A DNA stretch of 22,772 bases. It comes from Trichormus sp. ATA11-4-KO1 (GTDB lineage: Bacteria > Cyanobacteriota > Cyanobacteriia > Cyanobacteriales > Nostocaceae). The position numbers and the translations under genes were made by a program. Shown in pieces: positions 1-20,421 of this stretch. Where the stretch lies: positions 1 to 22,772 of the forward strand of contig JAHHIM010000052.1 of assembly GCA_019358915.1 (NCBI GenBank), read 5' to 3'. The notes under the pieces are model-generated. The model made no database searches and was not told where the DNA came from. It saw nothing but the letters and a program-made list of their open reading frames with translations. Numbering within the stretch: position 1 is the stretch's first letter; the number at the start of each line of letters is the position of its first letter.

Positions 1-127
1 CCCTTGTAAATAATAATGAGTCTGTTTGCAATTAATGTGAGCCGAAGTCTTTTTCTGTTTGCAATTAATGTGAGCCAACAATTTTCTTGTTTGCAAGCCG
101 GAGCGTTTATGTTTGCGAGCCGCAACA
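1..127 (-). mobile_element. End of a DDE transposon (Tn7/Tn5053/Mu-like or IS21-like) inserted in cas1; element extends left beyond the window
   Basis: Minus strand from 127 reads TGTTGCGGCTCGCAAACA...; perfect 23-bp direct repeats TCTGTTTGCAATTAATGTGAGCC at 21-43 and 54-76, partial TGTTTGC copies at 88 and 110; Cas1 similarity stops exactly at the TGT. Confidence 0.7.
21..76. repeat. Two perfect 23-bp direct repeats, putative transposase-binding sites
   Basis: TCTGTTTGCAATTAATGTGAGCC at 21-43 and 54-76, 33-bp period. Confidence 0.9.
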
Positions 128-1491
128 GCTAGAGGTGCAGCTTGCGATCGCGGCTGATGGTAAAAACCCAAGGCAGATTCTAACCCAACAGTTAAGATGG
201 CGTTCATGACATCTTTGAGTAGTAAGGCATAACCAAAACTCAATAAGGCATTGAATCTGTCTTTGGGCGGACGACGATTTCTACCATTAAAGTGCAATTC
301 ACTGGCGACTTCTTGGGAAATCAAACACGGCAGCGCACCAAAATACAAGGCAGCAAGATTCCCTTCTAATCCCAACAAGGATTCCAACGATTTGGCTTGA
401 GGAACTTGTTTGAGTACAGCTTTCATTTGGGCGATCGTTTTACGCAAAGCCTCTGCTCCCCCAGCTTTTCCCCTAGTGCCTCGCATCAAGAACTTGCGTT
501 GTCCCTGACCACGGCAAACTACCAATTTACGGGCTAATTCTAGGCAGGTATCAGGATTACTTAAAGCCGCATACTGACGAATACGGCGTTGAATGCTACC
601 TTGTCGGGTGTCAAAACTACCAAGATAGCGTCCGCCTCCTGAAATAAAATGCACACCAATGCCCTGGTCAGCGCAAAAGTGCAATGCTTGAGTGGAGATT
701 TGCGAGAAGCTGTGCAATACTAGCTGCCCAACCTGACGAGCCGGAACTATTTCAATAGGTTGATTACGACGAGTAATTTTGATTTGTTCTCCTGTTCTAC
801 CAACACAGGTTCCAGGTTCCAAAACATGAATTACCTGCCGTTCATCATCTTCAGGAAACAGGCGAATTGGTTGCCATTCTTTATCATGAGCAAGTCGCGC
901 TTCTTCTGGTAAACAGACCGGAGCTAAAGAACAACGAGCGCATAATCGTTCGTTATTAGTTACTGGTGGTCTATGGGTTGATTGTCTGAGTGCGCGTGCT
1001 TGCTGAATTGCTTGCCTAACTGCTGCTCGTCCTGCATCATCTAATGGTACGTGAATCAGTACATTATCAGAATGGTAGCGAATGCGACCTTCTTTCACTG
1101 TAATTCCCAAGGCAGATTCTAAGAGGAAAGCATAAGCCAAAATTTGTAGGCGATCGCTCTCCCAGGCTTGGGGTTGCTTGTTCTCATCTCGATGACAACG
1201 ACCGCGTTTGTGTTCATAGGGAATTGTTTGCCCGTCACGGGTGCGAAGGGCATCAAGCCTACCACGTAAACCTAGTTCTTCGCTTTCAAGAAAAAGTTCT
1301 TCCCACTCCTCATCTTCTTGCTTTTCAATTTCAGCGTGCAGTCTGCGTCCAGCAAACACGGCTGCGTCTTGGGTGTAAAGTTCCTCGACTTCTTCAAGGT
1401 AGAAAAGGCGCGGGCAGTAGGCGAGAGCGTGGAGGGCAGAAACGCGCAGGGTGGTTTGACCGGATGAGATGGAAACCTCTAGTGTTTGCAT
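128..1491 (-). pseudogene. cas1: Cas4-Cas1 fusion (type I-B MYXAN), interrupted after ~455 aa
   Basis: Missing from the ORF track because the frame stays open to the window edge. Manual translation from ATG 1491: MQTLEVSISSGQTTLRVSALHALAYCPRLFYLEEVE...LRGRLDAL...YEHKRG...LCARCSLAPVC (Cas4 Fe-S cysteines, RecB motif), then LLGLEGNLAALYF...FNGRNRRPPKDRFNALLSFGYALL...GFYHQPRSQAAPLA (Cas1), then non-Cas1 sequence. Confidence 0.9.
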
Positions 1492-1521
1492 AGTAAAAAA
1501 ATTGCATTTCACTTTAAACAC

Positions 1522-1558
1522 AGGGTATGTCACTCACCCGGCAAAATAATTTCCGCCT
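1522..1558 (-). promoter_or_regulatory. Putative WYL-regulated promoter of cas4-cas1
   Basis: Minus strand AGGCGGAAATTATTT-TGCCGG-N10-TACCCT; box 1536-1558 is 20/23 identical to 9130-9152. Confidence 0.75.
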
Positions 1559-1733: not shown

Positions 1734-2450
1734 CTACAGCACATCTAAATTAGTAGGTCGTTTGGGTGTCCATGTCCAAGCATCTGGCGGCGGCTCTGAT
1801 GTTGGTTCCTCTAGAGGAGCATATAGTAAGCTAACTGTTTTACTATTATCGGTACGATTAATGTCCACAGTTAAACGATAAGAACCTCGCATGGGTAGAT
1901 TATCTGCTTGCATTTGTATATACCAAAATGTTGGTGGTGGTTCATCAAGAATATCAATTCGGTCAAATAGGAAGTTGTTATCTCCAGCGAAAGGTAAACC
2001 ATAACGGGGTGTGTTTAATTCACCGCACAGCCCTTTTTTAACCTGATTTATTAGCTCTTCTTGTGCTTGCACACCCAGCACCATATCCAGCCCAACTAGT
2101 AACTCTCGGCGAGCCGGAGTAATCCAGTATTTTGCACCTTTTGTACGGGGCTTAAGCTCCTCTTTGCCGGAATTTCCTACCGGATAAGTATGAAGTTGTT
2201 GATAAAGTGTGCAGATTTCGCTTTCACTGCCTGCAACAGTGCCAAACGCCAGCCTTAAACAAGGAATATCCGAGCGAATTGATGTGATTGGCTCAGAGGT
2301 GTGATCACGCATTTCAATGCCAGCCAAATTTAACACTAATCCCAGTGCAGCAGAAGGTGGCATGACTGGAGCCGTTGCCCGATATACTCCTGCTTGAAAT
2401 CCTCGAAAGGCAGCGAATGGAGCACGAATACGTAGCCAAAGGCAATCCAT
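1734..2450 (-). CDS. cas5: CRISPR-associated Cas5 (DevS/Cmx5 type)
   Basis: N-terminal LWLRIRAPFAAFR...PPSAALGLVLNLAG Cas5 motif, PRYGLPFAGDNNF; follows cas7. Confidence 0.92.
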   Translation of the reverse strand: MDCLWLRIRAPFAAFRGFQAGVYRATAPVMPPSAALGLVLNLAGIEMRDHTSEPITSIRSDIPCLRLAFGTVAGSESEICTLYQQLHTYPVGNSGKEELKPRTKGAKYWITPARRELLVGLDMVLGVQAQEELINQVKKGLCGELNTPRYGLPFAGDNNFLFDRIDILDEPPPTFWYIQMQADNLPMRGSYRLTVDINRTDNSKTVSLLYAPLEEPTSEPPPDAWTWTPKRPTNLDVL

Positions 2451-2464
2451 TAGTGTCTGTCTCC

Positions 2465-3343
2465 CTAACTTAAGAACGCATCAGCGATATCAGCCAGTAA
2501 CTTTTGAGGGTTTTCGTAAAGATGCACACCTTCATTTTCAAAATATTCACGCTTTTCGAGTTGCATAGCACGAACGATCTCACCACCAATCCAGAATTCT
2601 TCACCAGGTAAATCGCTAGCTTTGATGCGTCCTAGTTCTGGAAACTGCCCCTTGTCGTCAAAACCATAGGTGTCATAGCCTGCAACTAAGTTTGGTGTGA
2701 GTCTGGCAATAATACTTCTCGGAGCCATTTCATAGTAGCTGCGAGCGTGACCCCCTGCAACATCAGACAGTTGTGCAATTGCTTGAATCAGTGCTTTTGT
2801 CCAATCAGGTTTAACTTGGCAGTCAGAATAAGCCAACGCAAAGGGGTATTGATAAGCAGTGTGAGCTACTTCACGGTGTAGCAGGGCAGATGTTGAAGCA
2901 TTTTTCCAAGGGCTATTACCTGCATTTAAAGGAGATTGATGAAAAGTTGCATCAAAGCGGTAAGCGGTTAGTGCAACTGCCATATTCATTCGTAAAACAC
3001 TGTCTCGCTTAGGCGGTAAACCCTTGTTTTGCTTAATTGCATCTTTGTCTGCTACTAGATACCCAAACAAAAAATCATCAGCATATTTTTCGGCATTAGG
3101 GAACTCTTTGAATTCAACTGCTAGCTGGTCTTGGTCATGCAAGCGAGTGCGATTACAGGGTAGTCCAGCTTTGATTAACATCTCTCGCAGCGCATTTCGC
3201 ATGGATTCTGGGCTAATAACAGTGTATTCTTTATTGCCTTTAGCAATCTTTTGCAGCACAGTGCGGTTTTCTTCGCTCTCACCACGATAGTTTGAACTGG
3301 GTGCAGGATAGGTGAGAATGGTGGCAAATAGGTTCTTGTTCAT
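2465..3343 (-). CDS. cas7: CRISPR-associated Cas7 (Cst2/DevR type)
   Basis: SNYRGE, ISPESMRNALRE and DDFLFGY motifs; lies between cas8 and cas5. Confidence 0.92.
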   Translation of the reverse strand: MNKNLFATILTYPAPSSNYRGESEENRTVLQKIAKGNKEYTVISPESMRNALREMLIKAGLPCNRTRLHDQDQLAVEFKEFPNAEKYADDFLFGYLVADKDAIKQNKGLPPKRDSVLRMNMAVALTAYRFDATFHQSPLNAGNSPWKNASTSALLHREVAHTAYQYPFALAYSDCQVKPDWTKALIQAIAQLSDVAGGHARSYYEMAPRSIIARLTPNLVAGYDTYGFDDKGQFPELGRIKASDLPGEEFWIGGEIVRAMQLEKREYFENEGVHLYENPQKLLADIADAFLS

Positions 3344-3368: not shown

Positions 3369-3770
3369 TTAGCTGTTGGCAGAAAGGGCAAGTAACGTGA
3401 GGGTGCGGATGCGATCGCTATCCTCATACAAGGCTTTGGTTAAACTCACGTAGTCCTCTGATCTCATGTGTTGCGGTACTGAGCAAAGTGAAGAAACAAA
3501 GTAATTAATAAAATCTCTTTGCTCAGTACGACTACGAACATCAAGAAATGCAGTTTTAGCAATTTTGGCTTTCTTCTCGGTATACTCCTTGTAGTCAGGA
3601 CGTTTACTTAATTCATTTCGCCCTTCTTTGGCTGACAATAGTGGCTTCCACTCTGCTTTAAATTCCAATTGATATTTAGAATTTAGTTTCCGTCGAACAT
3701 AGTTTTCGACTAATCGAAATACTAATTGTTCAATATTAGTTTCCGTAACTGTTGTGGTTTCTTCATCCAT
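3369..3770 (-). CDS. cas11: Putative Cas11 small subunit translated from an internal start in cas8 (133 aa)
   Basis: In-frame ATG (M431, MDEETTTVTETNIEQLV...) after a linker, with weak SD-like ACGAGAT upstream; internal Cas11 translation is established for I-B/I-C/I-D. Confidence 0.6.
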   Translation of the reverse strand: MDEETTTVTETNIEQLVFRLVENYVRRKLNSKYQLEFKAEWKPLLSAKEGRNELSKRPDYKEYTEKKAKIAKTAFLDVRSRTEQRDFINYFVSSLCSVPQHMRSEDYVSLTKALYEDSDRIRTLTLLALSANS

Positions 3771-5060
3771 AGGTGCTATCTCGTTATTAAATGCTTCTCG
3801 AACGTCACGACAAAAGTAATCATTCTCGATACTTTGCTCATAGGGAAGACTGCACAGCAGAGCATCAAAGCCTGTGTACCAGGAGTGGTGGTTAACCAAG
3901 TTCAGCAGGCGTTGTCGGCGAAACAGAGGACTCCAGTAATTATCACGGATTTGAGCATATTCATCCACCATAGGCTCATCAGGGTCAACTCGAGATATAC
4001 TAAGTAACCTGACGTTATTCCCTCGTTTTTCTGTGTGAATGACATCCACACCCAAGAGGGTATAACCTGTTACTTGCTGTCCTGTTTTAACTGTGAGGCG
4101 AGACCGCAATCGTCGCATCACATCCAAGGCACTTTCAATAGCAAGATCAACTACTGCATCACGGGGGCGATAACCAGAGATTTCCGTACCGCGCTCACTC
4201 AACACCGCAGGTAATTCATCACAAAAAGCGTGAAGGTCAGCAATATCAGGAATTGCTAGAGCATAGCCTACAAAATCTCGGCTACCCTCGGTATTAATCA
4301 CTGCCGGAACATAGATTTGTGCTGTAAACAGCCAGAAGTGCAACAAAAATTGAAAGCGTCCCCGATCCTTGAATGGAACTGTTTCTGCATTAAATGCTTG
4401 TGCGCCCAGGAAATAGGTACTGGGTAGATCAACTGTGAACTCTAGGGGCTGTACTAACTCTTTCCAGATTTTACCTGCATCTTCAGTGTATGTTCCTTCT
4501 GCTCTAGCTTCAAACGGCTTACGAGTTGCTGGAACACCTCGCAAAATATTCCAAACCATGTCTCGCCACAGTTTGATCCAATAGCCATTCTTATTATCTG
4601 AACTTTTGTCATACTGAGAATCAGCTAAAAATGAGCCTTTAGGGACAACGACCGGATAGATATAGACTTTCTTCTTTTTGACTTTCTGCGGATTCTTAGG
4701 GTCAATCTCGTCCCGCTCCTCTTCCCGCAGGGGTGGAATTACTTCTTTTGTTCGTTGATTCTTGAGTGGTTGAGGTCGGGGCTGTTCCTCTGTACTCGCA
4801 GCGTAAACTTCATCAAACAACGCTTCTAAACCTGCTTGATTAATTTCAAGAGTTGCACCCTGGGTATCAAGTCGAGTTATTCGACAAATCGCCCCGTTGT
4901 TTATCTTCTCTTGGAAATCAGGCTGCCGCTCTAGCCACTTGATAATCAGTATCAAACCTGCCAAGCCTGCTCGATGCTGTGAGGAAGGCAGTTCAGCTAG
5001 TTGATAGTCAAGCGATAAAATATCTACTTCTGTGTTTGGTTTTGTTTTCGTCTTAGCCAA
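3369..5060 (-). CDS. cas8: Type I-B large subunit Cas8 (Cmx8)
   Basis: LAELPSSQHRAGLAGL, WIKLWRDMVWNILRG, F.DRGRFQFLLHFW and C-terminal RTLTLLALSANS typical of Cmx8; TTG start overlaps cas3 stop, GAGG RBS. Confidence 0.9.
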   Translation of the reverse strand: MAKTKTKPNTEVDILSLDYQLAELPSSQHRAGLAGLILIIKWLERQPDFQEKINNGAICRITRLDTQGATLEINQAGLEALFDEVYAASTEEQPRPQPLKNQRTKEVIPPLREEERDEIDPKNPQKVKKKKVYIYPVVVPKGSFLADSQYDKSSDNKNGYWIKLWRDMVWNILRGVPATRKPFEARAEGTYTEDAGKIWKELVQPLEFTVDLPSTYFLGAQAFNAETVPFKDRGRFQFLLHFWLFTAQIYVPAVINTEGSRDFVGYALAIPDIADLHAFCDELPAVLSERGTEISGYRPRDAVVDLAIESALDVMRRLRSRLTVKTGQQVTGYTLLGVDVIHTEKRGNNVRLLSISRVDPDEPMVDEYAQIRDNYWSPLFRRQRLLNLVNHHSWYTGFDALLCSLPYEQSIENDYFCRDVREAFNNEIAPMDEETTTVTETNIEQLVFRLVENYVRRKLNSKYQLEFKAEWKPLLSAKEGRNELSKRPDYKEYTEKKAKIAKTAFLDVRSRTEQRDFINYFVSSLCSVPQHMRSEDYVSLTKALYEDSDRIRTLTLLALSANS

Positions 5061-7437
5061 GTTCCACCTCGTCTAAGGGTTTAGTAATAAAGCCGTGATT
5101 CTCGTTATAGTTTCCTTCCCATTGGGCAACCCCTAAATATTTTGGCAGCCAGCAATGCTCTTCAGTTCGTTGATTGGCCCATTTTTTCGGTACGTTAATA
5201 ATGAATTTTTCCTTTTCATATTTTTTGGTAGAATCAATGACTTGTTTGACTACATCTAAATCTCGATCAAGAATGCAAGGCACAGCAAATTCATCTGTAT
5301 CCCGGAAGGAACCAGGGGTTGCATAGTAGCCACTATCTAAGAAGGGAGAACTGCCATCAGCCTTACGTTCCTGGCGCGTGTAATCATCGAAAGCAACCGC
5401 TAGTTGATATTGACTGATTTTGTCTGCACTCGATGATAAGAAAGATAGAAAGGCTTTCGCTTTTTCCAAGTCTTCTTTGTGATAAGGTCTGTCACTAGGA
5501 GGTTTGTAAGTGTACAGTATTGCAAATTCTCTTGTGAGATGTCGGTTAGCACGTCCAAACCTTTGCACCAAAGCTGATACCGGAGCAATTTCCGTAATCA
5601 GTACGTCTGCATCTAGGTCTAAACTCATTTCGCAGACTTGGGTAGTAACTGCGATCGCTCGTTCTGGTACTTTGTCTTTGGAGTAGGCAAAAGCAGCAAC
5701 AGTCTTACTGTGTATTCGTTGGCGATCGCACAGCCTAAACCGACTGTGATAGGTCAATACGCTGGTATTAAGTCGAGTTTCAAGTTTTTGGGCAATCGCC
5801 AAGCACCTATCCACCGTGTTGACGACCCACAACACCCGCAACCTCTGCTCATCATAAGCTGCAACTGCTTTATCAAAAGCAGCACTAAAGTTATCAACAG
5901 GTTCTAAACGATAACGCTCTGCTTCCTCTTTTTCTTTTAAATCCTTGAGCTTTTCCCTATCTACATCTGTGGGAAACACCTTTAACTCTGTCGCAACCAG
6001 TTCATCTCGCCGCGATTTCGGTAATGTTGCTGTCATGCAAAGCACTGGAATATGAAATGTTTGCAAAAAGCTGATTAACGAATCAAACATTGAGCGGTCA
6101 AAGCTATGTACCTCGTCAATAATAACTGCACTATCTGCTAGCACTGGCAGTAAGCATAAACTTTGATAGCTGTGTTCCATAAAGCTGAGGAATTGATCTA
6201 CCGTGGCACTGAAAAAGCGTTTAGACCAAAAGCCCAGAGCATACAGACGCTCATCAGCTTCAGAGCGGAAAGTTTTACCTGCGATCGCCTCATTTGGATT
6301 TTCTGCCATCGCTTCCAGTTCATACCGGGCGGTTCCTGTTATTAACGCGGCATCTGTCTCTGGTGCCCAGCCCACATAATCCCGGAATCCTTCAGTTGCA
6401 GTCCCACGAGTGGGATACAAAAAAATCACTTTTCCAATGTTGTAGATCCCAGATTGCGCTTCTGCCCATTTCCAAGCAGCCAAAGTTTTTCCAGCACCGC
6501 AGGCAGCTAGCAATAATGCTTTTGAGCCTTGCTCGGCAACCTGGTTCTGAAACTCCTGAAAAACAAACGATTTTTTGGTCTTTTCTTCAATTTGCTGAAT
6601 GCGCTTCTGAATAATTTTCTCTGCGATGTCTTTGGGTGTAATCGTCTCACAATGTACAACATCTTCAATCCATCTGGTAATTTCATGTCCTTCTCGTACT
6701 AATCCAGAAGCTGCTGCATCTGACACAATCAACCCAGCTTTGACTGCCACTAAAAACCGTTGGCGCTCTTTGTTTTCTCGAATAGCTCTACCAAATTGAT
6801 CGGCAAAGGTTCTTCCTTTCTTATAAGTTTGTTCCCACACTGAGCCAGCTTTCCAAGGGGTAATCGGTAGGCTAGGAGGTGGATCTAACTTTGCCAATTC
6901 TGCAATTGTGTTGAGTATGCGAGTAACTTCATTATGAATTAGGTACAGTTCTAACGATTTTTTAGATGACTGTGGTTGACACCATCGATAACTTTTACCA
7001 TCCTCCGTTGTTTTCTGATCCCTTCCAGCCTTCAAGTGATGGGACAATACTGCGGCTGTGATGACATCCACATCCAAATTAGAATCTTTAGAAGATAACC
7101 ACTTCCTAACTTCTGGCAGGCAGAGAATTAATGCGCTGAGGTGTTCATGGCGAAGTACCTGTGGCAGAAATTTAGCAGTTGTCACCGCCGCGTAGAAGTC
7201 TTCATTCGCTTTACCAATATCATGAAAAAGTGCAGCTACTTTTAAATTGAGGAGAAACTTTTGTCGTATTGCTTCTCCTTCTAGTTGAAAAAATCGGCAC
7301 CAGTTTTGTCCCCACCGACCGTTTAACCTAAAAATTTGTGTAGCAGCACTCTCGGTATCTCGTAAGTGAGATTCTAAAGTAATATCCTTACCTTGTCGCT
7401 TACTTTTTGCCAATAATTTCTCAGGAAGATTAGGCAT
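5053..7437 (-). CDS. cas3: CRISPR-associated Cas3 HD nuclease-helicase
   Basis: HD motif ALFHDIGK, Walker A AACGAGKT, DEVH, TAT, QRFGRANRH; start set at ATG 7437 (GGAGG RBS, overlaps cas6 stop) rather than 7536. Confidence 0.95.
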   Translation of the reverse strand: MPNLPEKLLAKSKRQGKDITLESHLRDTESAATQIFRLNGRWGQNWCRFFQLEGEAIRQKFLLNLKVAALFHDIGKANEDFYAAVTTAKFLPQVLRHEHLSALILCLPEVRKWLSSKDSNLDVDVITAAVLSHHLKAGRDQKTTEDGKSYRWCQPQSSKKSLELYLIHNEVTRILNTIAELAKLDPPPSLPITPWKAGSVWEQTYKKGRTFADQFGRAIRENKERQRFLVAVKAGLIVSDAAASGLVREGHEITRWIEDVVHCETITPKDIAEKIIQKRIQQIEEKTKKSFVFQEFQNQVAEQGSKALLLAACGAGKTLAAWKWAEAQSGIYNIGKVIFLYPTRGTATEGFRDYVGWAPETDAALITGTARYELEAMAENPNEAIAGKTFRSEADERLYALGFWSKRFFSATVDQFLSFMEHSYQSLCLLPVLADSAVIIDEVHSFDRSMFDSLISFLQTFHIPVLCMTATLPKSRRDELVATELKVFPTDVDREKLKDLKEKEEAERYRLEPVDNFSAAFDKAVAAYDEQRLRVLWVVNTVDRCLAIAQKLETRLNTSVLTYHSRFRLCDRQRIHSKTVAAFAYSKDKVPERAIAVTTQVCEMSLDLDADVLITEIAPVSALVQRFGRANRHLTREFAILYTYKPPSDRPYHKEDLEKAKAFLSFLSSSADKISQYQLAVAFDDYTRQERKADGSSPFLDSGYYATPGSFRDTDEFAVPCILDRDLDVVKQVIDSTKKYEKEKFIINVPKKWANQRTEEHCWLPKYLGVAQWEGNYNENHGFITKPLDEVELG

Positions 7438-8104
7438 CGTAAAACCTCCAGGCACGCGGAAATGGGGTGAAAATGCCACAACCCATGCGATGTTTACCCC
7501 CAAGTCCGAAGGTTTGTAACTTGATGGAGTCCTCATCGTTAAGCCCTGTCACATTGACACTGAACCCGACAACTGAGTAAGTTTTGATTTTAATGGCTTT
7601 ACGGCTCAATTCCCCCTCTTCATTCAAAGGAATTGAAATATTACCTTGAATACCCAGTACATCCAATTGACGTTTAGCTGCTTCTAAAAATGGCTCAGGT
7701 TCTTGAAATTTTTTAATCGTGACAATACGCGATCGCAATTTATCAGTAGAGCGCAAGGGAAAAATTTGAGGAATGCCTAGTTGAATCTCATGGATGCCAA
7801 TAATTAGCCTTTTTCCAGCTAAAGGAAGCACGAGCGAAATTTTGTCTGGTTCGTAGGGCAGGCGAATTTTTAATCGAGATTGCTTGCTGAGGACAATTTT
7901 ACCTTGTCGATCTGGCTTCCCAGAGATAGTTTGGATACTTAACCATTCCTGCTCATGAAGAGCAGGACAAATGTTTGCGATCGCTGAATACAACCCATAG
8001 CCATGATCTGCTGGGAGGGTCTGACCTGAAATTCCAAAGCTCATCTCAACGTCAGGTAAATTGAATTCTTTTATCTGCTGTTCCTCACTCTGACTCGTCA
8101 ACAT
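7430..8104 (-). CDS. cas6: CRISPR-associated endoribonuclease Cas6 (Cmx6)
   Basis: LPADHGYGLYSAI and Gly-rich loop GLGGKHRMGCGIF. Confidence 0.93.
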   Translation of the reverse strand: MLTSQSEEQQIKEFNLPDVEMSFGISGQTLPADHGYGLYSAIANICPALHEQEWLSIQTISGKPDRQGKIVLSKQSRLKIRLPYEPDKISLVLPLAGKRLIIGIHEIQLGIPQIFPLRSTDKLRSRIVTIKKFQEPEPFLEAAKRQLDVLGIQGNISIPLNEEGELSRKAIKIKTYSVVGFSVNVTGLNDEDSIKLQTFGLGGKHRMGCGIFTPFPRAWRFYDA

Positions 8105-8106
8105 AT

Positions 8107-9090
8107 TTAAACTGCTCCTGAAAGAGTGTAATAACTACTCATCGCTTCCACCTCATCTTGAACCATTTGCACCAACTCAGGCGGCCCTTTAACAATCGCT
8201 CCCTTGCCATACCCCAACACCCATCTTTTCAACTCATTTAAACCTGTTACCTGCATTTGCAAAGTAATAGAACCATCAGAATGCTCTTCAATTTCTTGAG
8301 TAGGATGCCAACGTCGTTCCCGCACATAGGGAGCAGTTGAGGTATCAAACCAAATTGCCACAGGTACAGGATTTCCACTGCCTACTTCCGATTGAAAAAT
8401 TTTTTCTAAATGTTCTTTAGCATTGAAAGTTGGATCACGAATAAACTTACTACTGAGTAGTTGTAATTCCTTAATTCTGTCCACACGAAACCAGCGTATA
8501 GCCTGTCGTAGATTACAGAAGCCAATAACATAAGGATTAGTGCCTCTATAAATGTGTAATAAATAAGGGTCTATTACCCTATCGGAACTAGTATTGCGAC
8601 TGGCAGTGTAATAGTGAATTTTGACTTGTTGAGAGTTGCGACACGCTTCAACTAACTGACTCCAAATTTGGGGGTTGAGATAAGTTTCAGCTCCCGCCGT
8701 AAAAATAATTCTTTCATCAGCTATTTGTTGCAAGTCTACCCAACTCTGCTCAGGTAATCGTTCACTTAACCGCAAAATTGCGGAACGTAAATCATTGACG
8801 TAAGCAGACCCAGCATAAGCTTGCAGCATCCTCGCTCCTAAAGTCAAAGCAAATAATTCTCCTTGCGAAAGAGAAATACTAGGCAATCGCCATTCTAGGT
8901 CAGTGTAGTGATGGCCCTTTTTCCGAGTAAACTCTAAAGGTGCATTAAAGCGATCGCGCAAAAAAGCCAAGTCACTGCGAACTGTACGCTCACTAACTTC
9001 TAAAACTTCGGCAAGGCTTTTAGTTGTTGGTCGCGTAGTTGTTCTGAGTAACGAATCAACCTGCAATAATCGCTCTAAATGCCTGGACAT
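8107..9090 (-). CDS. HTH-WYL-WCX transcriptional regulator (PafB/PafC/YafY-like)
   Basis: N-terminal wHTH (LAEVLEVSERTVRSDLAFLR), WYL core (R.IDPY...YVIGFC..RQAIRWFRVDRI), WCX tail (WVLGYG..AIVKGPPEL). Confidence 0.92.
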   Translation of the reverse strand: MSRHLERLLQVDSLLRTTTRPTTKSLAEVLEVSERTVRSDLAFLRDRFNAPLEFTRKKGHHYTDLEWRLPSISLSQGELFALTLGARMLQAYAGSAYVNDLRSAILRLSERLPEQSWVDLQQIADERIIFTAGAETYLNPQIWSQLVEACRNSQQVKIHYYTASRNTSSDRVIDPYLLHIYRGTNPYVIGFCNLRQAIRWFRVDRIKELQLLSSKFIRDPTFNAKEHLEKIFQSEVGSGNPVPVAIWFDTSTAPYVRERRWHPTQEIEEHSDGSITLQMQVTGLNELKRWVLGYGKGAIVKGPPELVQMVQDEVEAMSSYYTLSGAV

Positions 9091-11730: not shown

Positions 11731-11788
11731 CAAGATATCTAGATATTGAGGTATCTTTATGTCTAGATACCTCAATATCTAGACATAA
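11731..11788. repeat. Array of in-phase 8-bp units (CTAGATAT-like) containing two perfect inverted repeats; putative centromere/operator
   Basis: caagatat ctagatat tgaggtat ctttatgt ctagatac ctcaatat ctagacat; 19-bp IR 11738-11756/11765-11783; 13-bp IR 11757-11769/11776-11788. Confidence 0.8.
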
Positions 11789-11837
11789 CAAAGAACTTAG
11801 TGTAAGCTTTTCTTTATTGAGTTGGACAATATATAAA

Positions 11838-12602
11838 TTGCTGTCTTGTGCCTGCGTTTCGCTTTCCGGCGGACAAGGGAAAACCACCGTAGCTTTTTTT
11901 CTCTCTCTGCTGCTTGCCAGTCAGGGTAAACGAGTCTTGGCCATAGACTGTGACCCACAAGCCAACCTAACCTTTTACCTGAATCATGAAGTAGCTGCCA
12001 ATCAACCCAGTTTACTGGAAGTTCTCACTGGTGCTGTAACCATAGAAGATGGTATCTATCCCACTCAACACAGTAACCTGTTCCTCATCCCTGCGGATAG
12101 AAGCTTATTCAAAGTTTCAGATTACCTAGTCAACAGTGGTGCAGGTGCGTTTATCCTCAAACTGAGATTACGCAACGTGCAATCTTTATTTGATTACGTA
12201 ATTATTGATGTCCAACCCTCGCGATCACAAATCTGTTTAACCGCAGTCGGAGCATCTGAAAAAATTCTGATTCCCGTGGAAGCTACGACCAAAGGAGTCA
12301 ATTCCCTAATTGATACCCAGGACTTTTTACAAGACCAAACATCAATCATGGCATTTACAGGAAAGGTTTTGGGAATAATCCCCTTTCGAGATCGGTGGAT
12401 TGGCAACACTCAAACTCTTGAGGGTAAAGAGAACATTGCTGCTATGAGAGAATTCGCTGGCGACATTCCCGTGCTACCCTCTATTCGAGAATCAGAACAG
12501 TTTAAACGTGCTATCCGTAAAGGGAAACTGTTATCAGAACTTGGACAAAAAGACCTGGAATATCCCTTTGAGCAAATTATTAAAATACTGAATCATGAGT
12601 GA
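11838..12602 (+). CDS. parA: ParA-family ATPase, McdA type-1-like
   Basis: Walker A SLSGGQGKTT lacking the signature Lys, IDCDPQANL, IPVEATTKG, PFRDRW, ESEQFKRAI; closely resembles S. elongatus McdA as recalled; start TTG 11838 (or 11817). Confidence 0.9.
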   Translation: MLSCACVSLSGGQGKTTVAFFLSLLLASQGKRVLAIDCDPQANLTFYLNHEVAANQPSLLEVLTGAVTIEDGIYPTQHSNLFLIPADRSLFKVSDYLVNSGAGAFILKLRLRNVQSLFDYVIIDVQPSRSQICLTAVGASEKILIPVEATTKGVNSLIDTQDFLQDQTSIMAFTGKVLGIIPFRDRWIGNTQTLEGKENIAAMREFAGDIPVLPSIRESEQFKRAIRKGKLLSELGQKDLEYPFEQIIKILNHE

Positions 12603-13041
12603 TGATGCCCTAGAACGCCTGAAAAAACGGCAACGTCCCAATGTTCCTACTCGTGATACTTCTTTGATATCTAACAGTCAAGATATCTCGATACCTGGAT
12701 ATCAAGATGCTAAGGTATCTAGCACACAAAACATCCCTAACTCTAACAGTCAAGATATCTCGACACCTGGATATCAAGATGCTAAGGTATCTATACATCC
12801 AGTAGTTAAAATTAAGCAGAGTACCATTCGCTTGGAAGCAGAACTGAGTGAACGCTTGAGTGAAATGTGTAAAATCAATGGCATTAGCAGGGAAGTATTA
12901 ATAGAAGCATTATTTGAACACTACGAGGCTGACCCCCAAGCATTACAGGCTATCTTGGCACTAGCAAAAGTCAAGGGTGAACAAAGAATGCAAATTGCCA
13001 ATATGAAACGAGCGCAATCAATGATGCAGCGTTTTGGTTAA
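12595..13041 (+). CDS. ParA partner: McdB-like basic N-terminus, repeat linker, RHH-like C-terminus
   Basis: Overlaps parA stop; MSDDALERLKKRQRP resembles the McdB N-terminus; KQSTIRLEAELSERLSEMCKINGISREVLIEALF fits beta-alpha-alpha RHH. Confidence 0.8.
   Translation: MSDDALERLKKRQRPNVPTRDTSLISNSQDISIPGYQDAKVSSTQNIPNSNSQDISTPGYQDAKVSIHPVVKIKQSTIRLEAELSERLSEMCKINGISREVLIEALFEHYEADPQALQAILALAKVKGEQRMQIANMKRAQSMMQRFG
12670..12793. repeat. 52-bp direct repeat (72-bp period) built from 8-bp units inside the ParA-partner gene
   Basis: 12670-12721 vs 12742-12793, one mismatch; units caagatat ctcgatac ctggatat caagatgc taaggtat. Confidence 0.9.
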
Positions 13042-14580: not shown

Positions 14581-15276
14581 TTAGAAACGAAAACTGAGTT
14601 TCGCTTGGTGATTATTCTGTGGTGTAACTTCAGCAATCATCATTCCCCACACAACACTAAAACGAAATTTAGTTGCGCGCTCTATATCAAAATGTGCAGA
14701 CCTTAGTAAACTATGAAACTGTTTTTGGGTGTAACACTGTTTGTAAGCAGGGTCAACAAACTTCAATATAAAATCACATATCTGACACGATAAATAATCT
14801 TTACACCAATCTAAAATAAATACTTTACCTTCTGGTTTTAAAACACGTCTTATTTCCATTAATGCAGCATGAGGAGCATCAAAATAATGAAATGCACTTG
14901 CAGATACAATTACATCAAAACTGTTATCTACAAATGGTAAATTTGACACACTTGCATTCTGAAATGAAACATGAGAATAAGTACGACATTTTTGTTGAGC
15001 TACGAGGAGCATTTCTGCGGAAATATCTACTCCAGTAATCACTTGCTGTGGATTTTCAGTGAGTAATAATTGCTCAAATTCTCCTGTTCCACAGCCAATA
15101 TCAAGCACTGTCGCTTCTGGTGGAATCTCTGCCCAATTTTTTAGAGCAGATAGTGATTTGGCAATATATGTATTCCAACGCTGGTCATATGACTTTGCCA
15201 TCTGGTCGTATTGTTGGCGAATTACTTTTTCACTCATAGCTATTTTTTGTCCGGTATTTAGTTCAAGTTGATTCAT
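14581..15276 (-). CDS. Class I SAM-dependent methyltransferase (UbiE/Methyltransf_11-like)
   Basis: VLDIGCGTG, GVDIS, LPFVDNSFDVIVS, RVLKPEGK; start ATG 15276 (overlapping LysR stop) or 15237. Confidence 0.88.
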   Translation of the reverse strand: MNQLELNTGQKIAMSEKVIRQQYDQMAKSYDQRWNTYIAKSLSALKNWAEIPPEATVLDIGCGTGEFEQLLLTENPQQVITGVDISAEMLLVAQQKCRTYSHVSFQNASVSNLPFVDNSFDVIVSASAFHYFDAPHAALMEIRRVLKPEGKVFILDWCKDYLSCQICDFILKFVDPAYKQCYTQKQFHSLLRSAHFDIERATKFRFSVVWGMMIAEVTPQNNHQAKLSFRF

Positions 15277-16138
15277 GCAATAATATTTGAGTGAATTGGT
15301 GGACTGGACTCTGGCAAGATATGCTACTGCGCCAGATAACAAATAATTCTTTGCGTAAGGTTTTGTTATCTACATCTATAGGAATGGCGTATAGTAACCC
15401 TGCTTGTACCTCTTGAGTAACTGATTTTGACAGCACAATTGAAACTCCTAACCCTGCTTGTACGGCTCGTTTGACAGCTTCTGTACTACCCAATTGCATG
15501 GAAATTCGCATTTTGTGAACTTGCTCACCAAAAAATTGCTGTAGTAAGCGTCCAGTACCAGTACCTCTTTCTCCGCCTAACATTTCGATATTTTCTAGAT
15601 AGGCTTTGGGGACTTTCGGCAAATCTCGCCAAGGATGATTTGGTGGCACTATGAAGACAAGTTCTTCGCTTTGCCAAAGTTGAGATGTAAACCCAGGACG
15701 ATTATCCCACCACTCCATTAAGGCTATATCTACTAATCCAGTTTCTAACTTGTCAGCGATCGCCGGATTAGCATCAATTACTAAATCCACTTCATAGGAG
15801 TTATCATACTGTTCCAAATGATATTTCAAATACGGGGGTAAGAGATAAATACCAATATTAGAACTCGCCCCAATTCGCAATTTTGTAGATTTGAGGGCTG
15901 AAACTGCTCTTTGTGTTACCAAAATTAGACTTTCGGCATAAGGAAGTAATTTCTGTGCCGCAGGAGTCAATTGATTACCCTTGCGATCGCGGATAATCAG
16001 TTGAGTGTTCAAAGATGCTTCTAACTTTTTAATGTGTTGTGAGACAGCAGGTTGAGAAATTCCCAGTTGTTTGGCAGCTTGGCGAAAACTCCCTGTATGG
16101 ACAACGGCTAAAAAACTTTCTACGTACTCAAAATTCAT
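15263..16138 (-). CDS. ptxE: LysR-family regulator (PtxE-like)
   Basis: GSFRQAAKQLGISQPAVSQHIKKLE HTH, STEAVKRAVQAGLGVS; downstream of ptxD as in ptxABCDE. Confidence 0.8.
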   Translation of the reverse strand: MNFEYVESFLAVVHTGSFRQAAKQLGISQPAVSQHIKKLEASLNTQLIIRDRKGNQLTPAAQKLLPYAESLILVTQRAVSALKSTKLRIGASSNIGIYLLPPYLKYHLEQYDNSYEVDLVIDANPAIADKLETGLVDIALMEWWDNRPGFTSQLWQSEELVFIVPPNHPWRDLPKVPKAYLENIEMLGGERGTGTGRLLQQFFGEQVHKMRISMQLGSTEAVKRAVQAGLGVSIVLSKSVTQEVQAGLLYAIPIDVDNKTLRKELFVIWRSSISCQSPVHQFTQILLHEST

Positions 16139-16150
16139 AGGTGGGGCAAA

Positions 16151-16307
16151 TCAAGTCAAAAGGAGCCAGTGCATTGGGCGGCTATGCCGATTTGTAGCAA
16201 CTGGCGTTCAAAAGTCAAAAAGAGCCAGTGCGCCCTTGCGGGTTTCCCAACTTGTAGCAACTGGCGCGGCTTCTCGCAGAGTAGCAACTAGCGTTCAAAA
16301 GTCAAAA
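16151..16307. repeat. TCAAAAG heptamer tract with nested ~45-bp palindromic small dispersed repeats
   Basis: GAGCCAGTGC...GCAACTGGCGT at 16163-16207, a variant from 16222, and a further copy at 22132-22176. Confidence 0.8.
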
Positions 16308-16536
16308 TTAAATAACTTTTTTAAAGGAGACAAGGAAGTAAAAAGGTAAAAGAAAATGGCTTTTGCGTCCCTTTTATGGTGAATGAAGATTGATTATTAC
16401 AACAAAACCCTTACCCCGCAAGGGTTATAAAAAATTCAGCGCTGTTTTAAATGAAATCCTTACAGGGTAAGACTTGCAATGATTTCTAATCAGTTTTTTC
16501 ATAAGAGTAACCGAAAAAACCAGAAAAATTGACTGT

Positions 16537-17526
16537 TTATGGACAATTAACTGCTCCCTGTGGTTTTTGATTTTGCAGGGCTTGCAGAATATTTTGGGCG
16601 GCTTCTAAGGCAATGTTGCGCCGCAAATCATCAACAGCAGATCCAATATGGGGAGTGAGAAAGGTTTGATTAGTGTTTTCTATTAATGACTGGGGTATGC
16701 TGTGGGGGCGATCACTACGATACCAATCTTCCATTTCAAACACATCGGCAGCGTAACCTGCTAAGTGTCCAGATTCTAAAGCTTGACATACAGCTTGTTC
16801 ATCAACTACAGAACCACGACAGGGGTTAATTAAAAAGCTGCCTGGTTTCATTTTGGCTAAGGTGTTGGCGTTGATTAAATGAAAGGTTGCTGGTTGCAGA
16901 GGTACTACCAACACAATAAAATCACTTACTTCTATTAAAGTATCAAAAGGCACTTGTGATAAATTCCATGCTGCCTCTTGTTCTGGAGTTAAAGCCACCG
17001 GATCACTGTAAAGTAACCGCATCTCAAAACCCACCAGCCGTTGAACGAGCGCTTTGCCCAATGCACCCATACCAACAATTCCCAAGGTGCGATTTGCTAA
17101 ACCTAGGCTGTAAAATTGGGGTCGCCATCCGGCAAATTTACCTGTGCGAATGAAGCGATCGCCTGCTAACATCTGTCGTGCTAACCCAATTAATAACCCA
17201 ATGGTAATTTCGGCAGTGGGTGCAGACAACAAAGAAGGCACAATTGTAAACCATACACCGCAACGGGTACAGGCATCAACATCAAAGTTGTCGTAGCCTT
17301 TGAGGGCGGCTCCAATCACTTTTAGCTGGGAACACTGCCGCAGAAAAGCTTCATCAATGGTGTCTGGCATAAATACCATTAATGCCTCAGCATTTTTAGC
17401 CCGTTGCAGAATTTCTTCACGAGATAAAGACTCTTTACTGGGGTTAGCAATTACCTCACAATGAGGTTCGAGGAGTTCAATGACTTCTGGATGTACCCAG
17501 TTAGTAATCACAACATTTGGTTTCAT
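16537..17526 (-). CDS. ptxD: NAD-dependent phosphite dehydrogenase
   Basis: D-2-hydroxyacid dehydrogenase fold with PtxD residues ALKGYDNFD (K), [10 protein letters not shown] (R), DVFEMED (E), TPHIGSA (H); GMGALG Rossmann motif; follows ABC genes. Confidence 0.95.
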
Positions 17527-17535
17527 GATATTTCC

Positions 17536-18345
17536 TCAAGCTAACCGTCTGCGTAAATAGTTACTGAAACTATCTACCAATATCACCATCATCAAAATGA
17601 CGAGTAGTATTGCTGCTACTTCTTTATACCTAAGAATACGTAAAGAACCAATTAGTTCAAACCCTATACCGCCTGCCCCGACTGCACCCATGACAGTAGA
17701 AGCGCGAAAGTTATATTCCCAACGATATAAGGTAACATCTAACATTTGCGGCAAAACTTGCGGTAAAACACTGTGATAAATTACCTGAATTTTGTTGGCA
17801 CCAGCCGCCTGTGCTGCTTCGATTGGTGCAGAGTGTACGTGTTCGATGTACTCAGCAAAAAACTTACCCACCATCCCAATTGAATGTAACCCCACTGCCA
17901 ACGCTCCTGGCAATGCACCAAACCCTACCGCAGCCACTAAAATAATTCCCATAATCAGTTCTGGCACAGCCCGTAAAGCATTGAGAATCAGACGTGCTAC
18001 CTGAAACACAATCGGGTGGGGTGTAGTATTCCCAGCTGCTAGTAGTGATAACGGTAGAGAAAAAGTAACTGCAATGGCGGTTCCTGCAACACTCATCGCC
18101 AAGGTGTCAAACAGTGGCTTAATCCAGTTGATAACCGAACTAAAATCAGGCGGTAGCATTTGGCCAATTAAATTAATCCCACTAGGCACACCCTCAGCTA
18201 ATCTTTCCCAATCAAAAAGACCAACTAATAAGAAAGATATCATCACAATTACTACAACAATAGTTACTTGCAGTAAATGCTTATATCTCTGTTGTCTTTG
18301 TTGTTTTAACAGTGGTTCAAATTTTTGATAACGATTGGTTGTCAT
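17536..18345 (-). CDS. ptxC: Phosphite ABC transporter permease (PhnE-like)
   Basis: Hydrophobic TM segments, EAA motif (PIEAAQAAGA), YRWEYNFRASTVMGAVGAGGIG. Confidence 0.92.
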   Translation of the reverse strand: MTTNRYQKFEPLLKQQRQQRYKHLLQVTIVVVIVMISFLLVGLFDWERLAEGVPSGINLIGQMLPPDFSSVINWIKPLFDTLAMSVAGTAIAVTFSLPLSLLAAGNTTPHPIVFQVARLILNALRAVPELIMGIILVAAVGFGALPGALAVGLHSIGMVGKFFAEYIEHVHSAPIEAAQAAGANKIQVIYHSVLPQVLPQMLDVTLYRWEYNFRASTVMGAVGAGGIGFELIGSLRILRYKEVAAILLVILMMVILVDSFSNYLRRRLA

Positions 18346-18606
18346 AAAACTCGATTGAATAGGTAGGAAGGAAAAGGAAGAAGGTAATATGTGGTCTGAA
18401 AATCATATCTTTGAAACCAGAATTCTTCAATTTGTTGGTTAAATTAGTCCCTATTAATTGGCTCTTACGTTGGTTTTTTGGTACGGCATTAAAATAGCCG
18501 TTTTATAGAAAGGCTAAAAAATCTAAAATCCAGTGAGAGCAAAGAACATAGGCTCTGATTAGATTTTATTTCTTATTCGACTCCATAAAAGGCACTGAAA
18601 AGCCTA

Positions 18607-19608
<1,002 letters not shown>

Positions 19609-19620
19609 TTATCTTCTGCC

Positions 19621-20421
19621 TTATCTATGAGAGGCTTTGCCAACTGCCTTCTCAATCAATTCTTCTGCATCATCTAGGTGAATATTTTCGGTATTGCCAT
19701 AGATGCGATTAAGTTCACCTTCCTGAATACCTGCGGCATTACCATCAAAAACTACATGACCTTGAGATACACCAATTATCCTGTCTGCATAGGTTTTAGC
19801 TAAGTCTACTTGGTGTAGACTCATAATTGCCGCAATGCCGTCTTCTTGACAAATTTGACGTAGAAAAGAAATCACCTTGTGGGAACTAGCAGGGTCAAGG
19901 CTGGCAACCGGCTCATCTGCCAGAATTAACCGGGGTTTCTGCGCCAACGCACGCGCAATACCTACCCGTTGCTGTTGTCCACCACTAAGATTATCTACTC
20001 GTGTTAAAGCTTTATTTAATAGTCCTACTCTTTCTAAACATTCCAAGGCTATATATTTGTCAGCATTGGGTAATGGAAAAAAGCTTCTCAGAGTTGAGTG
20101 ATAGGCTAAACGACCAGTCAGCACATTTTGTAGTGCAGTTTGTCTACCAATTAACTGGTGCTGCTGAAAAATCATCCCTGTGCGCTGGCGATGTTGATGT
20201 AGTACCTTGGGTTCATTGAGTTGGCGCCAACCTTCTACTGTAATAGACCCTGCCGTTGGTTGGATGAGTCCATTTAAACACCGGAGCAAAGTTGATTTAC
20301 CTGAACCAGAAGCTCCCAAGATGACTGTAAACTCTCCTGGGTTAAAGTTTAAAGAAACTGACTGGAGGGCTTGAACTCCGCCAGGATAAGTTACACTCAA
20401 GCGATCCAGCTGAATTATCAT
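19621..20421 (-). CDS. ptxA: Phosphite ABC transporter ATP-binding protein (PhnC-like)
   Basis: GASGSGKST, LSGGQQQRV, ADEPVASLDP. Confidence 0.93.
   Translation of the reverse strand: MIIQLDRLSVTYPGGVQALQSVSLNFNPGEFTVILGASGSGKSTLLRCLNGLIQPTAGSITVEGWRQLNEPKVLHQHRQRTGMIFQQHQLIGRQTALQNVLTGRLAYHSTLRSFFPLPNADKYIALECLERVGLLNKALTRVDNLSGGQQQRVGIARALAQKPRLILADEPVASLDPASSHKVISFLRQICQEDGIAAIMSLHQVDLAKTYADRIIGVSQGHVVFDGNAAGIQEGELNRIYGNTENIHLDDAEELIEKAVGKASHR

Follow-up and report, generated by a model that had tools for sequence, protein, structure and literature searches.

What broke the cas1 gene at the left edge of this DNA, and was it drawn there? The window, i.e. the whole stretch of 22,772 nt that was analysed, is contig C52 of this assembly (G000) and starts at base 1 of the contig. 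Its minus-strand Cas4-Cas1 frame ends ...FYHQPRSQAAPLA and changes at position 127 to TGTTGCGG. The earlier note, made from the sequence alone, described a normal Cas1 reading up to this switch and took what follows for a transposon end lying inside the Cas1 catalytic domain. We read the same frame, and the insertion into cas1 is confirmed: the element ends, the duplication and the resumed cas1 were all found (Table 1).

Since the window starts at base 1 of C52, the interior of the element lies outside it. The features that the note had proposed to look for beyond the left edge, namely another element end, the remainder of cas1, cas2 and an array, are all present on contig C68, where cas1 resumes as LALDLLEIFRVPLVDM up to its stop codon and is followed by cas2 and then by the array. 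The window part matches positions 1-247 of the TIGR03983 profile and the C68 part positions 247-347, i.e. the gene was divided without loss of sequence. With the element removed in silico a 568-aa Cas4-Cas1 frame is obtained, whose best homologue among the 38 loci compared is 93.5% identical over 557 aa without gaps. The insertion site is spanned by 34 of the 38 cas4-cas1 loci, the other 4 stopping short of it. Close homologues that align through positions 1-127 had been named as the sign against an insertion; unlike the window, the homologues that span the site are uninterrupted in 34 out of 34 cases. The break separates residues that we take, from our knowledge of the Cas1 family, to be catalytic: E390 and H459 are in the window part, and C68 has D471 and E474, which belong to the LDLLEIFR helix. 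The note had expected a helix with a further metal ligand after E and H to be cut off, and this helix was found on C68; the truncated Cas1 is presumably unable to complete its metal site.

The duplication had been proposed to be the 5-bp CTAGC (132-128). The pairing is in fact 6 bp long, TCTAGC (window 133-128), and a 5-bp duplication was rejected because the ends pair at 6 bp. The join of C52, the element and C68 rests on this duplication and on the reading frame, and is spanned by no read or contig. An assembly artefact, i.e. a collapsed repeat joined to a broken cas1, is most improbable: the assembly lacks the element interior and the window stops inside the repeat, but the two halves of cas1 end on opposite element ends, have the 6-bp duplication in common and rejoin in frame.

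The terminal motif occurs 14 times in G000, 13 times at contig ends and once as a truncated internal copy. There are 7 window-type (A) and 6 second-type (B) ends, and 6 of the 7 A ends are paired with a B end by a 6-bp repeat, the window end with that of C68 by TCTAGC. Contigs C39, C45 and C51 are each self-paired and therefore circular, with a single copy on each. The partner of the C56 end was not found among the contigs of the assembly (all at least 10 kb); the assembly contains no contigs under 10 kb, so another cas1 or chromosomal copies of the element could be missing from it. A second cas1-like region on C56 (tblastn) was rejected, its flank being unrelated. The two perfect 23-bp repeats and the two partial ones that had been reported in the window end are there; when the 127 bases were shuffled 1000 times, no exact repeat longer than 10 bp arose, as compared to the observed 23 bp.

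The earlier reading that the interference genes are intact also holds: cas5, cas7, cmx8, cas3 and cas6 are stop-free, and all pass their NCBIfam cut-offs except cas7, which falls just under it. The gene order cas6-cas3-cmx8-cas7-cas5-cas4/1-cas2-array is that of type I-B (MYXAN), and the same order is found on plasmid pCENA543a. We note that within the array spacers 6-8 recur as spacers 9-11 (C68:1374-1801, L001).

Table 1. Features of the window, of partner contig C68 and of contig C28 (positions without a contig name are those of the window).
Feature	Position	Strand	Evidence or remark
Terminal inverted repeat, outer 127 bp of ~177 bp, TGT end at 127	1..127	-	14 copies in G000; 96% identical to both L017 ends
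Exact 23-bp subterminal repeat, presumed transposase-binding site	21..43	-	repeat search
Exact 23-bp subterminal repeat, presumed transposase-binding site	54..76	-	repeat search
Partial repeat GGCTTGCAAACA	88..99	-	read from sequence
Partial, most terminal repeat GGCTCGCAAACA	110..121	-	read from sequence
Target-site duplication TCTAGC, 6 bp	128..133	-	second copy G000:C68:127-132; only 6-bp pairing among 7 non-A ends
5' part of cas4-cas1 fusion: whole Cas4, Cas1 profile 1-247 with E390, H459	128..1533	-	TIGR03983, frame
cas5 (Cmx5/DevS)	1734..2450	-	TIGR02586
cas7 (Cst2/DevR)	2465..3343	-	TIGR02585, 69.6 bits vs 72.75; 66% to pCENA543a homologue
cas8 (Cmx8)	3369..5060	-	TIGR04413
cas3, HD and helicase motifs present	5053..7536	-	profile and motif match
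cas6 (Cmx6)	7430..8104	-	TIGR02807
WYL-domain regulator ahead of cas operon	8107..9090	-	Pfam HTH_11, WYL, WCX
ParA and ribbon-helix-helix partner, plasmid partition pair	11817..13041	+	evidence for a plasmid as host replicon
3' part of cas4-cas1	G000:C68:128-433		profile match, read-through frame
cas2	G000:C68:443-736
Array, 33 repeats, 32 spacers	G000:C68:1018-3343
Tn7-like operon: TnsA-like/transposase fusion, ATPase-like gene, TniQ	G000:C28:45364-50820 (L238)

A whole element is represented by a 4222-bp contig (L017) of a genome of the same genus. Its 177-bp inverted repeats are 96% identical to each other, and its three genes code for a tyrosine recombinase (310 aa), a transposase (553 aa) and an AAA+ ATPase (323 aa); TniQ, TnsA and a Cas effector were not found among them. 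The window carries probably the right, ATPase-side end: a contig over positions 91-252 of L017 differs from it only at 179-190, so the left end is of the C68 type and not of the window type. In sequencing run X1 the element interior was covered in 30 out of 30 bins, with 94 of 157 contigs at >=99% identity and 58 at 95-99%; this run may be the source of G000 and is therefore not independent of the genome. Runs X2 and X6 gave little cover of the element. Identical ends and intact duplications make the element look recently active.

The transposase residues D165, D245 and E288 (DDE) do not vary among 36 relatives. In a weak model (pLDDT 66, pTM 0.33, TM-scores about 0.2) its predicted fold comes closest to ShCAST TnsB, IstA, Tn7 TnsB and MuA, and sequence searches of the PDB gave weak retroviral integrase and ABC matches only. 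The recombinase has the motifs R154, K, H252-x-x-R255, H278 and Y293. A 14-6-14 inverted core between the recombinase and transposase genes, a candidate res site, is also present in L043, L064 and L131, the relatives with a divergent tyrosine recombinase. Upstream of the transposase in 80 related loci the recombinase is of the serine type in 51 and of the tyrosine type in 3, while neither was detected in 24 and 2 are without a transposase frame. In a quick version of the transposase tree the three tyrosine-type elements are scattered among serine-type ones, which suggests that modules may be exchanged.

To which known group does such an element belong? The earlier note compared the end to those of Tn7/Tn5053/Mu and IS21-type elements, and proposed to look for tnsB, tnsC, tniQ or istAB. 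A DDE transposase and an AAA+ ATPase are there, TniQ is not, and the IS21 model scores far below its cut-off (15.1 bits vs 160). By sequence the element is a tyrosine-recombinase variant of the ISAzs36-like (IS481-labelled) lineage, with a transposase, an ATPase, a recombinase and a 6-bp duplication; in its presumed working it is of the TnsBC/Tn552 type. The element of Azospirillum sp. B510 plasmid pAB510f, whose transposase is labelled IS481-like element ISAzs36 family transposase in RefSeq, has a transposase 62% and an ATPase 65% identical to ours, both homologous over their full length, and also has the recombinase-transposase-ATPase order and TGT repeats of ~170 bp with TA-centred flanks. 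It differs in a co-oriented resolvase-type gene, whereas a divergent tyrosine recombinase and a 14-6-14 core are found here (3 of the 80 related loci). Matches of the rlgA type, known from the rlgA region of Salmonella plasmids, are 57% identical. In the literature covered, from which most subscription papers and ISfinder were outside the scope, no ISAzs36-like study of mechanism, ends, target rule or recombinase exchange was found; supplementary element lists, e.g. those of PMC8649781 or bioRxiv 10.1101/2024.11.13.623437, may already include the lineage.

IS481 elements consist of a single transposase gene between short repeats, unlike the three genes and 177-bp repeats seen here, and the NCBIfam cut-off for IS481 is missed (70.5 vs 224 bits), although it is the best transposase model. 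Tn552 has a transposase, an ATPase, a resolvase and a preference for res sites, and is compared by description only. The TGT...ACA termini of the IS481 family (PMC11406308) are found here too, and so is the 6-bp duplication that most of its members make (PMC10045372; 6 of 6 pairs in G000). The element resembles Tn5053 and Tn552 in its long ends with arrays of ~20-bp repeats (for Tn552 see PMC8649781), in the combination of transposase, ATPase and resolvase, and in plasmid residence. Tn5053 finds res sites by means of TniQ (PMC11406308), whereas here TniQ is absent and the flanks have no common sequence. Other features of Tn7-like and Tn5053 elements, i.e. TnsA or TniQ/TnsD, a 5-bp duplication and a fixed attachment or res-site target, are likewise not seen, and the same is true of the CAST hallmarks, a Cas effector and guide in the element and insertion near a protospacer. 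The likeness to IS21 (IstA/IstB) lies in the DDE transposase and AAA+ ATPase, with IstA among the top predicted fold matches; a recombinase is present here, in contrast to IS21.

TnsBC elements, as described (bioRxiv 10.1101/2024.11.13.623437), have a DDE transposase and an AAA+ ATPase without TnsA or TniQ, TGT/ACA ends and a resolvase; they move replicatively, and basal members are often on plasmids. Compared by description, the architecture is alike, including the TGT/ACA ends, the resolvase and the plasmid residence, but the Streptomyces elements have a 5-bp duplication and a serine recombinase, as opposed to 6 bp, a strict central TA and a tyrosine recombinase here. The Tn5541 branch is likewise cyanobacterial, without TniQ and reported only on plasmids, with a new targeting preference suggested (PMC9881144); its TnsA and TnsB are fused and its TnsC is extended, whereas the element here lacks TnsA and has a recombinase.

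The target rule is simple. TA is at the centre of the flanking hexamer in 36 out of 36 close junctions (background 0.069), the number of independent sites being below 36 since paired ends share one site. Besides TA, the close junctions have no common base over 25 nt. Targeting of a res site or other fixed site was rejected, as the flanks share no sequence; the integrase gene that the plasmid itself carries is located 13.5 kb away from the insertion. Both ends were found in 44 of the 80 related loci, with TA on 40 left and 42 right flanks. Only 13 of these 44 (two of which look like false pairs) have the exact 6-bp duplication, and a duplication of 5 bp only is absent among them. Few exact duplications with TA retained would be the expected outcome if copies had recombined with one another or deletions had arisen next to them, both known causes of lost duplications (PMC11708052).

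We regard it as quite likely that a 4.2-kb three-gene transposon inserted by chance at a TA-centred hexamer in the plasmid-borne I-B (MYXAN) cas4-cas1, and we infer that it moved replicatively. The transposase would bind the end repeats and, together with the ATPase, would join the element to a TA site with a 6-bp staggered cut. In the absence of TnsA a cointegrate would form, and the recombinase may resolve it at the 14-6-14 core site. The transposon is probably replicative; the recombinase, the core site and the unmatched TA flanks may point indirectly to a cointegrate. The plasmid bias of the element would have brought it to this plasmid, where cas1 would have been struck by chance, and the insertion would be tolerated because cas1 is dispensable. 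The truncated Cas1, without the D/E helix, would leave the array closed to new spacers, and the 32 spacers already in it could still serve in interference.

Was cas1 nevertheless a chosen target? The earlier note had considered a TniQ/TnsD- or CAST-directed landing. The idea that the element targets CRISPR-Cas loci as an anti-defence strategy, directed by TniQ, a guide or a repeat, can draw on the present cas1 insertion and on one insertion into an I-MYXAN array, where a 63% identical serine-resolvase relative is located on pCENA543a (L157:13993-17916). The right flank of that relative starts within a repeat and the left one ends in a spacer; both have TA and they are unmatched, implying a small deletion. 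The idea is very unlikely on several counts. The element has no TniQ or Cas gene, the one TniQ of the genome is in a separate operon on C28, Cas12k was not found in the genome, and no array spacer matched the element flanks; the sites share TA only. The other insertions in G000 lie in unrelated sequence. The flanks of 113 element loci (806 kb) contain no cas gene, which speaks against cas1 as the recurrent target that the note had asked about, and array-like repeats were seen in 2. The I-MYXAN cas1 cut-off was passed in 49 of 389 genomes of the family, and in 46 of those other genomes 48 full-length matches are uninterrupted; truncated cas1 matches in six other genomes have none of these element ends. 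Moreover, the CRISPR-cas locus makes up 36% of C52+C68, and of the 2176 TA sites on the two contigs cas1 has 86, the insertion site being one of these. In other words, CRISPR-Cas loci are large targets on small plasmids, and the insertion in cas1 is very probably a chance event caused by a plasmid-biased element of known kind. Searches with the spacers against the own genome, the element loci, plasmids and phages gave only 16-mers or repeat matches, which were rejected. As a separate observation, the I-MYXAN cas4-cas1 at L217:6060-6677 (G511) has an internal deletion from about residue 137 to 458, and GCGATCGC sites lie close to its junction.

It is conspicuous that the element is found on plasmids. 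Contig C68 carries a TrwC relaxase and ArdA, and relaxases, replication primases or ParA are found on the element-bearing units (149 of 151 called proteins scanned). All 7 insertions in G000 are on plasmid-like replicons, mostly one each, where C52, C59 and C67 are classed through their partners and have no replication or relaxase matches of their own. The element ends are on plasmid-like contigs in 13 out of 13 cases, compared with 4 (strict) or 12 (generous) of 65 ends for 11 other repeat families, the marker proteins used for this classing being derived from these same element contigs. Plasmid-like DNA is 6.5-10.2% of the assembly, and the bias counted by events has a p of about 1e-4. HIP1 density was tried and not used as a plasmid marker: it is lower on most element contigs, but C59 and C68 are chromosome-like.

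The same tendency is seen in other genomes. In the near-complete relative G570, whose small replicons make up 15% of its DNA, all 13 exact ends, belonging to 6 full copies and a stub, are on five small replicons (p = 1.2e-5 by length alone, ignoring copy number), and its 7.34-Mb chromosome has no exact end; a set of five full plasmid copies was not counted as independent of these. In G001, 4 of 8 flanking loci match plasmid markers and all 8 best match a plasmid-like contig of G000, one of them weakly. Four of the 5 copies of a relative in G745 are spread singly over four small replicons, and in E. coli 11 out of 11 element fragments are on plasmids. These observations would fit an active choice of plasmids by the transposase and ATPase, through replication, topology or transfer, with target immunity leading to about one copy per replicon. 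Against this, a 73% relative in HT-58-2 has 5 chromosomal copies and 1 plasmid copy, G753 has two chromosomal copies and no match on its two small replicons, and, among genomes with no more than about 10 contigs, chromosomes hold 3 of the 12 near-full-length matches and 6 of the 8 partial ones (<=3 candidates scored per genome). G570:C3 carries two copies 139 kb apart, and the element has no target-selector gene. We regard active targeting as possible, at somewhat below an even chance. The wider proposal, that the lineage selects plasmids actively without TniQ/TnsE, at strict NNTANN and about once per replicon, often disabling plasmid-borne defence loci, is a tentative one. If true, the element would spread over the whole plasmid set of a cell, here at the cost of the last cas1 and with three interference modules kept.

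A passive bias has close to an even chance. The pattern could come about if plasmids have the higher copy number, if the element arrives on plasmids, if new insertions are lost from a polyploid chromosome and if its own recombinase removes second copies; chromosomal copies in relatives agree with this, the recombinase would be expected to delete one of two direct copies, and the six G570 copies on four small and one large plasmid fit a count by molecule rather than by length. However, most ends of other repeat families in this cell are on the chromosome, which means that mobile DNA is not kept off it by copy number and polyploidy alone. Whichever the cause, this element shows a strong plasmid bias and its family a partial one. 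Plasmid preference without a known selector is flagged as an open question in PMC8649781 and PMC9881144, and a compact three-gene element with such a bias would make it testable.

A cas1 knockout is in itself ordinary. Here the split gene is the only cas1 found in the assembly (contigs of at least 10 kb), which is so because the chromosomal type I-D cas4-cas1 is deleted: the I-D operon (G000:C1:130009-136646, L237) keeps cas10d, cas7, cas5, cas6, cas2 and a short array, and compared to G001 it lacks 2.2 kb with cas4 and most of cas1, of which the last 45 codons remain. A type III-like operon is on C10, and cas1 was not found there. The strain is thus without an intact Cas1 within the assembly, and Cas1 was apparently lost twice independently, by deletion in I-D and by insertion in I-B. 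Since the element sits in the sole cas1 found, the strain is, from its gene content, probably unable to acquire new CRISPR spacers and so to record new CRISPR memories. The I-D, I-B and type III genes and several arrays, retained without Cas1, make it a natural case of frozen CRISPR memory.

Some further features of the window deserve mention. A 22-bp inverted repeat precedes parA (11735-11786) and a 52-bp direct repeat is located within the partner gene (12670-12793); both are candidate partition or operator sites. Positions 15263-20421 encode a LysR regulator, a 2-hydroxyacid dehydrogenase and phosphonate-type ABC genes, a set that resembles what we take to be a phosphite-use (ptx) cluster; G001 has a 98% identical stretch, and the contig that holds it likewise has this element at its end. 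The right contig end (22175-22772) is an IS630-family transposase fragment, a repeat common to C2 and C18.

The element ends also vary. At G000:C67:12290 and in L008, L151 and L152, i.e. in several genomes, about 62 bp of the end are left and a different sequence, common to these loci, takes over. It is probably another IS inserted at the AT-rich repeat; we take its start to be ISL3-like. Non-autonomous derivatives of ~400-500 bp that consist of two ends only occur at L023:7001-7418 (with a 6-bp duplication) and in L018 and L020. In some plasmid copies (L119, L120, L121) the right end has one or two additional 33-bp repeat units, and the L121 flanks are unmatched. At L229:4175 (G570:C7) a 19-bp stub of the end adjoins a sequence that terminates in CTACA, as the end of a related element does. 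At L022:6352-11223 a copy sits where the ATPase gene of a different DDE-ATPase transposon ends, and a TniQ gene follows on the other side of the copy. In G001 a 6-bp duplication is common to two right-type ends (L125 and L128), which suggests exchange between long repeats or mis-assembly. Finally, two same-strand ends on the G753 chromosome (G753:C1:1220937 and 4626095; L170, L161) have 6-bp flanks that match and are separated by 3.4 Mb, which suggests an inversion mediated by the element.
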